Source: Thermoproteota archaeon
GTDB lineage: Archaea; Thermoproteota; Thermoprotei; Thermofilales; B9-G17
Length of the DNA stretch: 30,086 bases
Direction of reading: 5' to 3'
Assembly (NCBI GenBank): GCA_029258885.1
Contig: JAPDJW010000026.1
Coordinates: 1-30,086, forward strand
Position 1 is the stretch's first letter. Every line of letters starts with the position of its first letter. A program made the position numbers and the translations under genes. The notes below the pieces were generated by a model. The model made no database searches, was not told where the DNA came from, and saw only the letters and a program-made list of their open reading frames with translations. Below are positions 10,239 to 30,086 of the stretch, piece by piece.

Positions 10239-11117
10239 ATGTTTAAGCTAAGCGAATCGCCTAGGCTTAAAACATACCTTAGACTATTTGGAGCGGAATC
10301 CATGTTAAATTATGGAAATTGCTTTATTTCATTAAGCTTCATATTATCGTCATTGGTCGGCATCCTCGCGTTCGTGATGCTAGAGGTCGTAATGATCTAT
10401 GAAGTATATTTAAACATGATATCCCTAGGAAACTTTCTATTCTTATCAATCGTTCTATCTGTGGCCTCCATAGTGCTTACCCGTGATATCATTGAAAGAG
10501 CGGATCTAATGGTTAACGCAGTAGCTGCATTTAATCCCATGACCCTACAAATAGATTCGATAGGAGTTACAGCCAGCCTTAATAGTGAGGAAATATCCAT
10601 TAAGTTTCTGGGAAGGGAATATCAGGCGGCATTGGTAAGGGTTAGAATATTAAATGTTAAGCCGCTAATAGAGTTTTTATTAACGTGGGATGATATGGCT
10701 AAGCTCCTGAACCTGCCGTTAGAGGCTCAACGCTTAATAGACGAAATGATTAAGATGAATGTCCGTAGAATTAAGGTGTTTGAGGAGAAAATAGATGGAA
10801 AATCTTGCTCTACCCTAGAGATTGAAGCTCCGAGAAAACATCTTAAGGAAGCTGTTAATGTGATTAGAAGACTTCAACTCCTTCTTCAAGGCAGCAAGTG
10901 TCCAGACTTTTACTTAAACATAGTTAAGAAGTTTTCAGGCAAAGTGAAGCTGGATAACTTGTTTGAATACATAGTTGAGATGCATGAGCCTATATTCGGG
11001 GAGAAATCTAGAAAGATAGTTGAGGATACTATCGAGAAGCTTAGGACTGTCTCAAAATGTAGTCGAAATGAGGCATTAATACACTTCTGGAAGACATGCA
11101 TGAAGGTGCATATATGA
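10239..11117 (+). CDS. Hypothetical membrane-anchored protein (two N-terminal TM segments, C-terminal helical module)
   Basis: Hydrophobic stretches near aa 28-50 and 60-80. The stop overlaps the next ATG (ATGA). Confidence 0.75.
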   Translation: MFKLSESPRLKTYLRLFGAESMLNYGNCFISLSFILSSLVGILAFVMLEVVMIYEVYLNMISLGNFLFLSIVLSVASIVLTRDIIERADLMVNAVAAFNPMTLQIDSIGVTASLNSEEISIKFLGREYQAALVRVRILNVKPLIEFLLTWDDMAKLLNLPLEAQRLIDEMIKMNVRRIKVFEEKIDGKSCSTLEIEAPRKHLKEAVNVIRRLQLLLQGSKCPDFYLNIVKKFSGKVKLDNLFEYIVEMHEPIFGEKSRKIVEDTIEKLRTVSKCSRNEALIHFWKTCMKVHI

Positions 11118-11674
11118 AGATATATTTTCTGACAGGTAACAGAAACAAGTATCTTGAGGCAAAAAGGATTTTCGAGGAATTTAACCTAAAGCTTGATATG
11201 AAGAGATACCGTAAAGTTGAGATACAAAGCAACTCGCTCGAGGAGATTGTTAGATACGCTGTCTTGAAGGCAGCCGAAGACTTTAGTGAAACGTTCGTTA
11301 TCGAGGACGATGGTTTATTTATCGAGTGTTTAAACGGCTTTCCAGGTCCCTATTCAGCGTATGTATATAGAACCCTAGGGCTTGTGAGGATACTTAAACT
11401 AATGGAGCATGAAGCTAACAGAAGAGCATACTTTAAATCAGTTGTAGGACTATTTATTCCAAGATTGGGCATACGTGTTTTCACAGGTGTTTCTGAGGGT
11501 AGGATTTCAATGAAGCTACGTGGAGAAGGGGGCTTCGGATACGATCCAATATTCATACCGGATGGATCGGAGAAGACGTTCGCTGAAATGAGCGTGAATG
11601 AGAAGAACAAATTTTCGCATAGAGCTAAAGCCTTCAGGAAGGTATGTAGCTTCCTTAAAGAGCTGCGATCCTAG
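11114..11674 (+). CDS. rdgB: Non-canonical purine NTP pyrophosphatase (RdgB/HAM1, XTP/dITP diphosphatase)
   Basis: YFLTGNRNKY; IEDDGLFIECLNGFPGPYS; GFGYDPIF; KNKFSHRAKA. Start at ATG 11114. Confidence 0.95.
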   Translation: MKIYFLTGNRNKYLEAKRIFEEFNLKLDMKRYRKVEIQSNSLEEIVRYAVLKAAEDFSETFVIEDDGLFIECLNGFPGPYSAYVYRTLGLVRILKLMEHEANRRAYFKSVVGLFIPRLGIRVFTGVSEGRISMKLRGEGGFGYDPIFIPDGSEKTFAEMSVNEKNKFSHRAKAFRKVCSFLKELRS

Positions 11675-18074: not shown

Positions 18075-18204
18075 GCATACCTAATTACGGTTAGGATAGA
18101 TAAGATTAACCGGATAAGCAGAGTATTCCTGGCATTTGTTCGTCAATCTTCCTCTGAGAAGACAAACTTTTATATCTCCTATGCGCCTGCTATATAGGGT
18201 GGAT

Positions 18205-18540
18205 ATGAGCAATAGGGTTGTTTGGGAGCTACTTAATAGCTTAATTCTGAATTCGCTCGATAGGCTTGGATACGTTGAAGAGACCTACAGCGTCGAGAGG
18301 ATGGGTGAGGAGCACCCACTAGTTATATACCTAGAGGAGAGGCTTAATAGGTTCTTCACGCCTAGTGGTGGGCTTTCCTGTCCTGAACTTGAGGAGAGAA
18401 TTAAGGATATGTTATCCAGGGATCCTGAGGGTATGAGGAAGCTTGTCGACTCCTATGTTAGATCCTATTATTCAGGTAGACGCAGGAGAGAGCCCGGCTA
18501 CAGGATAAGTGGCCGGGTTGTGGATGTGCTTAGTTTCTAA
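18205..18540 (+). CDS. Hypothetical helical protein (111 aa)
   Basis: Open frame, with ATG 18205 preferred over TTG 18136. Co-oriented with the AEP gene, 36 nt upstream of it. Confidence 0.65.
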   Translation: MSNRVVWELLNSLILNSLDRLGYVEETYSVERMGEEHPLVIYLEERLNRFFTPSGGLSCPELEERIKDMLSRDPEGMRKLVDSYVRSYYSGRRRREPGYRISGRVVDVLSF

Positions 18541-18576: not shown

Positions 18577-19995
18577 GTGAGGATAATTATGGATCTCGCT
18601 AGGAAACATTACAGCAGAAGCGATGTTAAGAAGGAGATCTATGAGTATTCTACTGGTAGGTGGATTGCTGCTGAGAGTAAGCCTGCTGGGGATAGGAGGA
18701 TATTCTTCAGGTACTGGAGGAGTGGTGAGCCTATCGTTTTCAGAAGAATGGAGGACGTTGAAAGGCTCTTTAGGGAGTATGGCTGGGGTAGGATTAGGAC
18801 TATATACGCTACCGCTAACGTCTATAGGAGTATTAGTGCTACTGAGAAGTTTGAGGATCCAAGTAATATAGCTTACACCTCTCCTATCTGGGATATTGAT
18901 GGAAGCATAGAGCATTGGAGGGAGATACTCGTAGTCGCTAGGGCTATCGTGGACTTCCTTGATAGAAACGGGATATCTAAATCCGTGTACTTATTGTGGA
19001 GCGGTGAAGGCGTTCACGTCCATATACACGAGAAGGCCTTTTCTCCCGAAGTTTTAGGCAGATATAATCCGCTGGATATAGCCTACTCTATAGTTGAGTA
19101 CACCATTAAGAGCCTTAAGGATGAGCTTAAGAAGCTAAGCAAAGACTTCAGGTCTGAGGTTAAGGTTGAGAATGTCATGGATATTAAGAGGGTGTTTACA
19201 GTTCCGCTAAGCATACACAGGAGGCTGGATTTATGTACTATATGTTTTAAGCCTGATGAACTCGATAGCTTCGATATTAGCTGGGCTAACCCAGAGAAGT
19301 TCAGACACAACACTAACTGGAGGCTTTACGTTGAGGGAGAGGGAGATGAGCTAGCGATTAAAGCCCTCTCTGAGGTCAAGGGATATCCGGGCTGGACAAG
19401 GGCGGATAAAATTAGGAGTTCTATAAAGCTTAAGGAGGAGAAAAGAGGAAAGGCTGGCGAAAGGAAGGAGGGGGGTAAGATAGGCAGATACTATGTTATG
19501 GCTCTCCTTCAAGCCGCCAGATACTTTACCCTCACGGGGGATTTAGATAAGGCTAAATCCTTCGGATTAAACAGGGCTATATTCTATGCATGGGCTAAAC
19601 ACTACGGCAAGGGCTATACTCCTAAAACCGTTATTAGAAGACGTGCTCCATCCGGTAGAGTTGAGGCTAAGGAGGGTAAGTATAAGTTTACCGTTGCATG
19701 CGGCGAGCAGGTTCCCGTCTCGGATAGAGGATGGTTCATTATGGGCGGTAAGGAGCAGATGCCTGACGAATACGATAGGATCATCGCTGGTAAGATCGAT
19801 AAAGTTGTACCCTACAATAAAGCCTGGAAGGCTGCTTTAGAGTACGTTAAAAGCTTTCCAGCAACCATTCTAAGCAATCCACAGAGGTTTTATGAGGAGG
19901 TCTATAAGCCTGTGCGTGACACATTCTATAGGGATGTTATACAACGTAAGGAAAAGACTAAGAAGGTTAGGACTTTAGAGGACTTTTTCTCGTAG
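18577..19995 (+). CDS. Archaeo-eukaryotic primase (PriS-like) domain fused to an uncharacterised C-terminal domain, ending in a PIP-box-like motif
   Basis: PIWDIDG (DxD); YLLWSGEGVHVH; ENVMDIKRVFTVPLSIH; C-terminal domain GRYYVMALLQAAR...FGLNRAIFYAWAK; terminal VRTLEDFFS*. Confidence 0.8.
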   Translation: MRIIMDLARKHYSRSDVKKEIYEYSTGRWIAAESKPAGDRRIFFRYWRSGEPIVFRRMEDVERLFREYGWGRIRTIYATANVYRSISATEKFEDPSNIAYTSPIWDIDGSIEHWREILVVARAIVDFLDRNGISKSVYLLWSGEGVHVHIHEKAFSPEVLGRYNPLDIAYSIVEYTIKSLKDELKKLSKDFRSEVKVENVMDIKRVFTVPLSIHRRLDLCTICFKPDELDSFDISWANPEKFRHNTNWRLYVEGEGDELAIKALSEVKGYPGWTRADKIRSSIKLKEEKRGKAGERKEGGKIGRYYVMALLQAARYFTLTGDLDKAKSFGLNRAIFYAWAKHYGKGYTPKTVIRRRAPSGRVEAKEGKYKFTVACGEQVPVSDRGWFIMGGKEQMPDEYDRIIAGKIDKVVPYNKAWKAALEYVKSFPATILSNPQRFYEEVYKPVRDTFYRDVIQRKEKTKKVRTLEDFFS

Positions 19996-20373
19996 CTTTT
20001 CAGGCCAATATTTTTCATCTATTCCGGATTTAAGAAGCATATATCTGATTATATCTTTAATAGCCGGAATACATGCCTTTATTTCCTCACTTGACATTAG
20101 GTCGAAGTAGAAGTTTAGAAAGAGAGCTTTAACTATAACCAGCTTCTGTAGCATATCCTTATCGCCCCTAATCTTCTCCAGTGCTACACCCATTATATTG
20201 CTGTGACTTTTAACGAACTCCTCGTCTTCACCCACTATTAGGGTAACCGAGACTGCAAAGGCGTCGTAGAGACTCTTGCAGGCATATGGCCTTAATCCCT
20301 CGTTCAGGAAAATTTCTGCCTGGTTTAGGTATTCTCCTATTCTCTCGCAGAGCTTAACCGCTGCATCTGACAT
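19975..20373 (-). CDS. PaREP1/HEPN-like helical protein (divergent)
   Basis: YLNQAEIFLNEGLRPYACKSLYDAFAVSV...KALFLNFY...EEIKACIPAIKDII. Start uncertain (20382, 20379 or 20373). Confidence 0.55.
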   Translation of the reverse strand: MSDAAVKLCERIGEYLNQAEIFLNEGLRPYACKSLYDAFAVSVTLIVGEDEEFVKSHSNIMGVALEKIRGDKDMLQKLVIVKALFLNFYFDLMSSEEIKACIPAIKDIIRYMLLKSGIDEKYWPEKLREKVL

Positions 20374-20467
20374 TTTCATCAACAGCCTTAAATTATGAGC
20401 TACATCTATTTAAAGCTAGACTTTTATAAGCAATAGCGTTATTATTAACCTACACCTATTTTACATC

Positions 20468-27680: not shown

Positions 27681-28436
27681 TTGCAGCGGCTTATAGTCTT
27701 TACTGATGATGATGAGGTTGAGGTAACCGCAATGGCTGTCGTTAACAACAAGGTGGTTGAAAAGAGGAGGTGGCGTCTAGTAGGTAATGGTATACTCCTC
27801 TCCGTTGACATTGAAGACGCAAATAGGATGAACTTTGAGAAGCTGATAAAGCCGAGCACCAACCTAGAGAGGCAGATTAAGAGGGAAATAGAGGCTTTCG
27901 CACGGCAGTATCACATACCTAGCCGTGAGGTCAAGAAGATCCTTAGATTGCTCCACCTGCCGAAGGAGTTTTACGATAGGCATCTTATAGACATTATTCG
28001 TGCTAATTATGAAGCTACTGGAGGGGATAAGATACTTCCGCTTGACAATGTATTTGATTTATTCTACGCCCTTCAGCCTAGGGATTCGATAAGTATACCT
28101 ATATCCGACGTTGAGGCCGTTAGAATCGAGAAGAACTACATATATAGGCCGCTGTCTGCTTGGAGGGTTAAGGATCAAGTGTTCCTAGTACTAGGTTTAT
28201 CGTTCCAGCCCCCTGGCACACTTAACAGCAGATACCTTGAGGAAATACCCCTAAAGATTGGGGGGGATCCGCTCTTCCTAAGGATACTTAGATGGCTCGA
28301 GGGTAAATCAAAAGCTGAAGGCATTCTAAATAAAGATGAGAAGCTGGGCGACGCTACGCCATCAGGTCCAGCTAAGGTTATAAGGAAGATGCTTGTATGC
28401 ACCTTCAGTATAGAGGTGAAGGGAGAAAATGGATAG
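27681..28436 (+). CDS. Hypothetical protein (251 aa)
   Basis: TTG start after GGTGA. Overlaps the Nudix gene by 8 nt. Confidence 0.75.
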   Translation: MQRLIVFTDDDEVEVTAMAVVNNKVVEKRRWRLVGNGILLSVDIEDANRMNFEKLIKPSTNLERQIKREIEAFARQYHIPSREVKKILRLLHLPKEFYDRHLIDIIRANYEATGGDKILPLDNVFDLFYALQPRDSISIPISDVEAVRIEKNYIYRPLSAWRVKDQVFLVLGLSFQPPGTLNSRYLEEIPLKIGGDPLFLRILRWLEGKSKAEGILNKDEKLGDATPSGPAKVIRKMLVCTFSIEVKGENG

Positions 28437-28848
28437 GATGTATCCTTCAAGGCCTATGGTCGGCGTAGGCGTAGTGGTGTTAAAGGAGGGTAAGCTCTTA
28501 TTAACCAAGAGGCTTAACGAGCCAGGCAGGGGGATGTGGAGCATACCTGGAGGCCTAGTGGAGGTGGGAGAGAAGGTGAGGGATGCAGCAGTTCGAGAGG
28601 TCTATGAAGAATGTGGATTAAAGGTGGAGATTATAGGCTTAGTTGATGTAGGAGATATAATCGTCAAGGATGAAAAGGGAGTAAGGTTCCACTACGTCAT
28701 AGTAATATTTAAGGCCAAGCCTCTCGAAGGCAACCTAAGAGCTGGAGACGACGTGGCAGAGGTTAGGTGGGTATGTTTCAGCGAGCTACATGAATATAGG
28801 ATTCCTCCTGTAGTTCTAAATGCTTTAAAGAAAATTAGGAAATTTTAG
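28429..28848 (+). CDS. Nudix hydrolase (ADP-ribose pyrophosphatase-like)
   Basis: Nudix box PGGLVEVGEKVRDAAVREVYEECGL; HYVIVIF; AGDDVAEVRW. Confidence 0.93.
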   Translation: MDRMYPSRPMVGVGVVVLKEGKLLLTKRLNEPGRGMWSIPGGLVEVGEKVRDAAVREVYEECGLKVEIIGLVDVGDIIVKDEKGVRFHYVIVIFKAKPLEGNLRAGDDVAEVRWVCFSELHEYRIPPVVLNALKKIRKF

Positions 28849-29986
28849 CCTTAATTAGACTATTTGCTATCTCCAGGAACTCCTCCTTTGCTCCTGTTGG
28901 TATAACAGCTGAAGCTGCATATTTATGGCCATCACCTATCCCCCCGACTTCGTGTGCAACATTAACTACTATTTCGGAGATTCCAGGATAGCTTCCCGCT
29001 TCAATTCTATCTCTTAGTTTACGGGGAGCTCTCATTGAAAGCTTAACCCAGCTTCCCTTAAGCTCCATCAAACCTGGTATCTCATTGGGCATAGTCATGA
29101 AGCCTAGAATGTATTTATCGGGATCTACAAGCCTGCCTTGGAAGCTTAGGAACGAGCAGAAGGTTCCGACAACCTTGGTCCCCATGCCCCTGTAAACGTT
29201 ATAGGTGTCGAACCACTGAATATATCTGGTCTTATTCAACCCCCGCCTGTAGAGTATGGCGAGCATTCTCCTATTAGCTTTCTTCCTCCTATCTTCAAGC
29301 TCCTCAACAAACTTAACTATATCATCCGACAAACCCTCTAAGCAAGCCTTTACACCGAGAAACGGACCGTTATTGTAGTAGCCTACAGGCCCAAGTATCT
29401 GAAGTAGCCTAAACATCTTCTTAGTATCCATGCTCCTGCCGGACTTTTCCGCATCCTCTCTAGCTTTAAGATTTAGCCCCGTTATTTTACCAGGGATCTC
29501 ATGTACCCCTATTAACGCTATGGAAGATAAATCAATATTGCTGGGGTCTAGAGCCTTGGCGAAAAAGTAGGTTACAACGCTTCCGGATGCATCTCTCTCC
29601 CCCTCCATATCGTAGAACTCGGGGTTCAGGTTATACACGAGCGGGTCGCTGGCTGGAACTGGATCGTGATGGTCGAGAATTATTGTTAAACTCCTGCCTG
29701 CGTTGGCTTTAGATATCTTGTCGGCATGCGGAGATCCTATATCAACGTACATTATTACATTGCCAGCATACTTCTCATGAATGAAACCTATAACCTGATC
29801 CATAAGCTTCTCAATGCATACAAGCTTGACGTTAAACCCTTTCCTCCTAAGAGCCTCATACGCTACAGCACCAGAGGAGATACCGTCAGCATCATCATGA
29901 AAAACTAGAAGAACATCCCTTCTATCCCACTCCATAAGCCTACTGCAAGCCTTGCTCAGATCCCCCATAAACTTATCAACGGACAT
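28835..29986 (-). CDS. RecJ-like DHH/DHHA1 phosphoesterase
   Basis: VFHDDADGISS; MYVDIGS; ILDHH; NPEFYDMEG..DASGS; GDGHKYAASA. Start moved to ATG 29986 (MSVDKF). Confidence 0.88.
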   Translation of the reverse strand: MSVDKFMGDLSKACSRLMEWDRRDVLLVFHDDADGISSGAVAYEALRRKGFNVKLVCIEKLMDQVIGFIHEKYAGNVIMYVDIGSPHADKISKANAGRSLTIILDHHDPVPASDPLVYNLNPEFYDMEGERDASGSVVTYFFAKALDPSNIDLSSIALIGVHEIPGKITGLNLKAREDAEKSGRSMDTKKMFRLLQILGPVGYYNNGPFLGVKACLEGLSDDIVKFVEELEDRRKKANRRMLAILYRRGLNKTRYIQWFDTYNVYRGMGTKVVGTFCSFLSFQGRLVDPDKYILGFMTMPNEIPGLMELKGSWVKLSMRAPRKLRDRIEAGSYPGISEIVVNVAHEVGGIGDGHKYAASAVIPTGAKEEFLEIANSLIKAKIS

Positions 29987-30086
29987 ACAATAGTTATAGG
30001 TTAGAATACAAATAAATACTCTTTCCACTGCTCAAATAGCATAACCATTACATTGCCAACTAGCTATAAAGTATAGGAAATCGGTA

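Follow-up and report, generated by a model that had tools for sequence, protein, structure and literature searches.

To our knowledge, the only AEPs (primase-polymerases) known from archaeal chromosomes are PriS and the rare NHEJ Pol, and none of them is PCNA-tagged. The window analysed here, a stretch of 30,086 nucleotides from a Thermoproteota archaeon, carries a gene in which an AEP domain is joined through a linker to an extra domain (domain X) and to a PIP-like tail (Table 1). This locus raises the question of which process such an AEP-X protein serves: chromosomal priming, the replication of a mobile element, re-priming at stalled forks or DNA repair.

The open frame described at 18577-19995 (+) is real and runs uninterrupted for 472 codons, but its start probably has to be moved. 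The real start codon is probably ATG 18589, on account of the GTGAGG site at 18577-18582 and of a database protein (P0002; 98% identical, 468 aa) that begins at the equivalent ATG. Pfam, NCBIfam and PDB sequence searches with the whole protein gave nothing significant, and an ESM Atlas feature search returned no usable match. The AlphaFold model, built on 101 homologues, reached a pLDDT of 89.

Table 1. Features of the AEP-X gene and its upstream region (positions in the window)
Feature	Position	Strand	Remarks
TATA-like box TTTAAAA	18548..18554	+	~35 nt 5' of the probable start codon; putative, read from sequence
Shine-Dalgarno-like GTGAGG	18577..18582	+	6 nt 5' of ATG 18589; contains the in-frame GTG chosen by the ORF caller
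Gene, AEP - linker - domain X - PIP-like tail	18589..19995	+	468 aa; type A member of an unnamed archaeal AEP family
Catalytic AEP (primase-polymerase) domain lacking a Zn module	18589..19392	+	Residues 1-272; fold nearest Prim-PolC / NHEJ Pol
AEP motif I WDID (D106, D108)	18889..18900	+	Both Asp invariant, 101/101 homologues
AEP motif II SGEGVHVH (H147)	19000..19023	+	S, G, G, H invariant, 101/101
AEP motif III D202...R205...P-x-S-x-H214	19180..19218	+	D202 100/101; R205, P210, H214 101/101
Flexible basic/Gly linker	19393..19476	+	Residues 273-300: 10 K+R, 5 D+E, 4 G; low pLDDT
Domain X	19477..19950	+	Residues 301-458; helical, small beta element, disordered basic loop
Domain X signature helices GR..MALLQAAR ... 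FGLNRAIFYAWAK	19483..19599	+	Invariant residues in 101 homologues
PIP-like tail KKVRTLEDFFS (Q-less, PolD-cPIP type)	19960..19992	+	C-terminal

All three AEP catalytic motifs listed by the first-pass annotation are present, WDID at 18889 and SGEGVH at 19000 as given there, and D..RVFTVPLSIH at 19180. They lie on an AEP fold and follow the superfamily patterns of motifs I (DxD), II (SxxGxH) and III (D/R...P-x-S-x-H). Since D106, D108, H147, R205 and H214 are found in all 101 homologues and D202 in all but one, selection acts on the family as an enzyme. The description "PriS-like" is correct at the level of the superfamily, but the modelled fold is closer to Prim-PolC and NHEJ Pol than to PriS. 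The best structural match is the mycobacterial Prim-PolC 6sa0 (Z 19.9, rmsd 3.5, 249 aligned); NHEJ polymerases score Z 18-19.6 (5dmu, Z 19.6), and together with Prim-PolC they range from 19.9 down to 18.2, against Z 13-16 for PriS/Pri1 (at most 15.8; PriS 1v33, Z 15.6).

With archaeal PriS (1g71, 1v33, 1zt2) the protein has motifs I-III in common, and a weak sequence similarity is detectable (profile E 0.03; PF01896 in 11/39 family members). However, it falls below all PriS cut-offs: residues 1-275 reach 12.4 bits with PF01896, for which the cut-off is 26.8, and have no NCBIfam match. The 37 residues between motifs I and II contain no Cys, whereas the PriS of the host has three CxxC there, so that the Zn module is lacking. 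Moreover, the gene is not beside priL, and archaeal PriS has neither domain X nor a PIP-like tail. A separate priS/priL pair, which the annotation had suggested looking for, does exist: the 99.9%-complete host genome encodes a single PCNA and a single canonical PCNA-priL-priS operon, which lies on contig C3 (G000:C3:83620-86669). The AEP-X protein is not PriS, and the idea that its gene could be the sole PriS of the genome was rejected because canonical PriSL is encoded elsewhere.

We then considered whether the gene could encode a domesticated or mobile-element replication prim-pol, or else a second replicative PriS. The patchy distribution and variable neighbourhood of the family speak for such a role, as does one distant domain X on an IMG/VR contig, but we regard it as extremely improbable. 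No fused homologue was found in viral contigs and no domain X in plasmids, the AEP-X protein has no Zn module beside a host that already possesses PriSL, its neighbours in the window are unrelated housekeeping genes, and its GC is typical for the contig. The earlier observation that no plasmid or viral replication genes are adjacent was borne out. Features of the pRN1-type prim-pols (plasmid or virus location, fused or adjacent helicase) were not found either. On the grounds of location, neighbours and GC, the AEP-X gene was therefore rejected as a mobile-element gene. The sole domain X found in viral contigs is a stand-alone one (L217:5001-5468, on the same contig as L135); it is carried by an 87-kb IMG/VR contig, which encodes a terminase-like GpA ATPase about 2.4 kb upstream of it. 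The flanking ORFs of the AEP-X gene, at 18136-18540 (+; 134 aa) and 19975-20382 (-; 135 aa), have no Pfam match; the latter is convergent, and its 3' end runs into that of the AEP-X gene, covering the final 21 nt with the stop codon. The window also encodes an ITPase (11096-11674), a Nudix hydrolase (28429-28848) and an archaeal RecJ-family nuclease (28835-30028), which lie 7-9 kb from the AEP-X gene and show no linkage to it in other genomes.

The protein belongs to an unnamed chromosomal family of largely thermophilic TACK, Asgard and DPANN archaea, for which neither Pfam nor NCBIfam has a model. A database search yielded 604 full-length homologues, and a scan of GTDB species genomes for the domain X motif gave 353 confirmed loci. 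The best 80 of these 353 loci, largely from hot-spring and vent bins, fall in Thermofilaceae, Desulfurococcales, Nezhaarchaeales, Methanomethylicia, Bathyarchaeia, Nitrososphaeria, Asgard and Woesearchaeota. In the phylum, 301 genomes were surveyed: 115 have the AEP domain, 92 have domain X and 81 have both. Cultured members exist in S. tokodaii (Q96ZU6) and Ignisphaera aggregans (ADM28084.1), with a stand-alone domain X in Thermofilum pendens (ABL77421.1); they are annotated as "hypothetical", except for one UniRef label "DNA primase". We found no description of the family in the literature and no paper citing the accessions of its cultured members, although a passing mention or an arCOG label in comparative-genomics papers is possible.

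Three architectures can be distinguished. Type A, to which this gene belongs, consists of AEP, domain X and tail. Type B (~410 aa) joins the AEP to an unrelated helical domain Y, with no detectable relationship between X and Y, and 5 of its 13 members have a PIP-like tail; type C is an AEP alone (~300 aa) with a PIP-like match in 2/25. The host itself has a short type C paralogue (G000:C1:516733-517638). At 21 of the 25 type C loci (L262-L286), from many families, a KaiC_arch_4 (TIGR03881) ATPase is encoded within ~4 kb, a linkage that may give a clue to the function of this uncharacterised RecA/KaiC-like family. Type C genes are often directly downstream of KaiC_arch_4, and three of the loci are near a DNA ligase. 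In the host, this linkage has been lost, and the KaiC_arch_4-like gene (C2:279013-279807) is located 3.4 kb from the main ligase. Two type A fusions have a degenerate AEP with domain X intact, namely Ignicoccus hospitalis (ABU81979.1; L249:2782-3882) and a close relative (L248:2956-4146), while a third member of the same family (L250) keeps the full AEP. With the AEP motifs lost in these two, polymerase activity is dispensable for some roles of the fusion. In Thermofilum pendens and relatives (L026/L027), a type B AEP without a PIP-like tail accompanies a distant stand-alone X that ends in QxTLF, a short variant of the tail. This pair is possibly a two-subunit version of the fusion.

The Lys/Glu/Gly-rich linker described by the first-pass annotation agrees with the composition of residues 273-300 and with their low pLDDT (<50 at residues 289-298, predicted disordered). 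The extra domain that follows is real, but the size of ~170 aa given for it has to be amended to ~158 aa plus a 14-aa tail. Its signature (GRYYVMALLQAAR / FGLNRAIFYA) is indeed nearly invariant in the 101 homologues. The first two helices are almost unchanged throughout, and R304, Q312, R315, N332, R333, F336, W339 and K341 are conserved in 101/101. The domain is basic (30 K+R vs 16 D+E) and folds confidently when modelled alone (pLDDT 88). Pfam, NCBIfam and PDB sequence searches with domain X gave nothing significant. No solved structure matched it by Foldseek or VIA (best Z 4.2), which does not by itself prove a new fold, and the matches of an Atlas shape search were apparently only the clusters of the family itself.

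These properties bear on a role in damage tolerance, in which a PCNA-recruited PrimPol at a stalled fork would prime de novo on the downstream side of the lesion and domain X would be an initiation or template-binding domain, an analogue of PriL-CTD or of the helix-bundle domain. The intact AEP motifs and the mostly thermophilic hosts fit this role, a clamp tag would put the enzyme at forks, and X is basic, helical and set on a flexible linker, as AEP accessory domains are. We nevertheless judge it unlikely. None of the AEP accessory domains (PriL-CTD, PriCT/HBD, PriX) is among the fold matches listed for X (best Z 4.2), a weak negative. Furthermore, the AEP fold is nearer to the gap-filling Pols, the type B and C paralogues do without X, and X also partners ligase cores and PolX, which are not priming enzymes.

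Domain X also exists as a stand-alone protein of 160-220 aa. In a quick tree, one archaeal clade (SH-aLRT 97) holds all AEP-fused forms intermixed with stand-alone forms, which, from their position, look like secondary fissions. The outgroup is made up of stand-alone proteins, from archaea as well as bacteria. Directly before domain X, 9 of 80 metagenome loci encode an ATP-dependent ligase of ~195 aa reduced to its adenylation domain (OB-less). All nine loci, attributed to bacteria, fall in one well-supported clade of outgroup X; one of the pairs is assigned to Caldisericia (mini-ligase MCD6168525.1), and one of the ligases carries a fused N-terminal domain that is prim-pol-like. The same clade includes the domain X of a low-GC metagenome contig (L190:240-2441), in which a photolyase, a palm/thumb-only mini-PolX (166 aa) and X form a tight same-strand cluster. 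Most other stand-alone outgroup X have no repair neighbour. Two members of the mini-ligase-linked group (L287:4001-4477 and L133:1302-1778) instead have an AAA_15/21 ATPase on one side and a methyltransferase or GmrSD gene on the other, a setting that resembles a defence island.

RNA ligases are typically without OB domains, and the mini-ligases have weak RNA_ligase Pfam matches. The partner ligases might thus be RNA ligases and the AEP a ribonucleotidyl transferase, a role that we hold to be very unlikely: DNA_ligase_A_M gives the mini-ligases much higher scores, the motif KxDGxR is present in them, and the photolyase/PolX context and the PIP tail point to DNA.

For the fused gene, we found no conserved operon in 78 loci, and there is no ligase beside it in this window. 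A DNA ligase is encoded within 6 kb in 5 of the 78 loci, mostly in Nezhaarchaeales, and was LigB-like in the three cases checked; a type B gene also abuts a LigB-like ligase in another genome (G008). In addition to its canonical DNA ligase (C2:283238-285052), the host has a second, LigB-like ATP-dependent one (G000:C3:263897-265489; 530 aa). Such ligases occur in 104 of the 301 genomes, in 75/115 of those with the AEP family vs 29/186 of those without, and in 56/92 of those with domain X vs 48/209 of those without, counts taken from genomes that are kin and at an arbitrary threshold. At the threshold used, 36 of the 92 X-bearing genomes have no LigB-like match. The co-occurrence is enriched, but neither obligate nor independent of kinship.

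The C-terminus was correctly read as VRTLEDFFS followed by the stop. It has the PIP core h-x-x-aromatic-aromatic (L467, F470, F471; tail pLDDT about 56-70), with Val instead of Gln at position 1. The literature consensus of the archaeal PIP box is QxxhxxAA (PMC4929162). In the homologues, Gln is the commonest residue at this position and yet a minority (30/135), and the consensus is T/G/S-L-D/L-x-F/W-L/F. The tail nearly matches the Q-less cPIP of Pyrococcus abyssi PolD (KKRVISLEEFFS), which was crystallised on PCNA and binds primase too (PMC7101311, PMC8096248). Unlike the cPIP of PolD DP2, it sits on an unrelated protein, for which binding to PCNA or primase is putative.

We searched the last 25 residues for PIP-like motifs with a broad and a strict pattern, using shuffles as expectation. 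Among the archaeal X, 83/121 of the fused proteins matched the broad pattern, where shuffles gave 3.8, and 77/102 of the stand-alone ones, where shuffles gave 3.6; the strict pattern was matched by 22/121 and 40/102 (expectation, 0.5). The strict counts are the fairer test because the broad pattern was fitted after inspection of the tails. None of the outgroup X had such a tail (0/31 and 0/85). As this outgroup includes archaea as well as bacteria, the absence is specific to the clade and not simply due to a lack of PCNA. The tail is thus kept in orthologues above chance and restricted to a single clade of domain X (SH-aLRT 97), although ~30% of the fused homologues are without it. Stand-alone X keep the tail, and I. 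hospitalis keeps X plus tail though its AEP motifs are lost, so the clamp tag travels with X and not with the AEP. The tail was also considered as an artefact of the overlap with the convergent gene, a possibility that we rejected because it is conserved where the neighbours differ.

In the host, only 10 of 1857 ORFs end in the strict [ST]-h-x-x-a-a pattern, this gene included. PolB, FEN1 and a Hel308-like helicase, recognised by visual inspection of their sequences, are among the others; the helicase (G000:C8:26519-28699) ends in the PIP-like tail ITLDTYL. Structure prediction with PCNA, another check that had been proposed, gave weak support: the last 32 residues scored 0.57 with host PCNA vs 0.01 for the best control, in runs sharing at least 71% of contacts with a partner pLDDT of at least 48, and the predictor may have passed the mark because it had memorised solved PIP-PCNA complexes. 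The mark applied is reached by 58/80 solved pairs and 2/110 mismatched pairs, and scores of 0.60 or under include only 7/80 solved pairs but both passing mismatches.

Because the PolD tail of the same type binds primase, which also counts against recruitment by the clamp, the tail could bind the replicative primase (PriL) instead of or besides PCNA. The enzyme would then partner PriSL, in primer extension or hand-off, in a lineage that has no PolD; a search of the host genome, 99.9% complete, found none. We give this possibility a low probability. Among the homologous tails are PIP variants of the Q and GLxxWL types, which resemble the tails of RFC and PolB. Domain X is present in only 92/301 genomes and, being so patchy, cannot be a core priming factor. 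The homologues listed include Bathyarchaeia and Asgard, which encode PolD.

The likeness to NHEJ polymerases raises the further possibility of a Ku-independent joining of double-strand breaks, with the AEP bridging the ends like LigD POL and domain X replacing Ku as end-binding factor. The AEP domain shares its fold with LigD POL and the Methanocella paludicola NHEJ polymerase (5dmu, 2irx, 2fao), and the fusion of prim-pol and ligase that precedes X in one bacterial locus is similar to LigD. The host genome (99.9% complete) yielded neither Ku nor the LigD phosphoesterase, which suits a Ku-free pathway and at the same time separates the protein from LigD POL, as does its different accessory domain. 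PF21686 (LigD_Prim-Pol) gave weak matches for 10/39 family members (best E 0.0014) and none for the protein studied here. End joining seems quite improbable to us, since a PCNA tag would fit the sites of loaded clamps (nicks, gaps, forks) better than free ends; no Ku-like fold is among the structure matches of X, although this is a weak negative.

The evidence leans modestly towards a PCNA-recruited gap-filling repair polymerase in which X is the module that engages the nick or gap. The first-pass annotation had proposed a clamp-recruited enzyme of repair or re-priming, whose extra domain may recognise lesions or templates. The separate PriS and the conserved tail agree with it, and repair is favoured over re-priming because of the AEP fold and the gene context of domain X, but PCNA binding is weakly predicted. 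The AEP-X protein would be a non-replicative, chromosomally encoded repair primase-polymerase. Its AEP domain, like Prim-PolC, which fills short gaps (PMC7442782), would add a few nucleotides at the 3'-OH in a short gap or resected nick. Domain X, to judge from its partners, would be a basic nucleic-acid-binding module that engages this nick or gap, and may substitute for the DNA-binding domains that reduced repair enzymes lack. The Q-less PIP tail is predicted, weakly, to dock the protein on the only PCNA of the host, alongside FEN1, PolB and ligase. The filled gap might then go to ligation, for which the second, LigB-like ligase is a candidate.

The closest known system is that of mycobacterial Prim-PolC with LigC (PDB 5op0, 6sa0; PMC5663958, PMC7442782), which provides the best structural match to the AEP domain, is likewise non-replicative and without a Zn module, and recalls the recurrent proximity of the family to an accessory ATP-dependent ligase. 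In contrast to Prim-PolC, with which it shares ~12% identity, below the family cut-offs, the AEP-X protein has domain X and a PCNA-type tail and no fixed ligase operon. By analogy, it would work like a Prim-PolC-type repair polymerase, yet on the features tested it falls outside PriS, NHEJ Pol and the mobile prim-pols. Against gap repair, it should be considered that the fused gene has no conserved neighbourhood and that the ligase link comes largely from Nezhaarchaeales; the X-bearing genomes without a LigB-like match, the tailless fused homologues, the outgroup X without repair neighbours and the two fusions with a degenerate AEP count against it as well.

More tentatively, X may be a new, free-standing subunit that senses nicks or gaps and makes up for what is missing in stripped-down nucleotidyl-transfer enzymes with three unrelated folds (the OB-less ATP-ligase core, mini-PolX and AEP), and that gained a PCNA tag in one thermophilic archaeal clade, bringing a repair polymerase to the clamp. 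If true, this would represent an undescribed clamp-coordinated repair pathway and a new principle by which ligases and polymerases are assembled from two subunits. As reagents, a thermostable gap-filling prim-pol and a mini-ligase of two subunits might also be of use. It is only partly understood how thermophilic archaea fill and seal the gaps that steady depurination and deamination leave behind. The AEP-X family, widespread, equipped with a domain of no known fold and directly testable through its cultured members, probably belongs to a set of DNA gap-repair tools of thermophiles that has so far gone undescribed.
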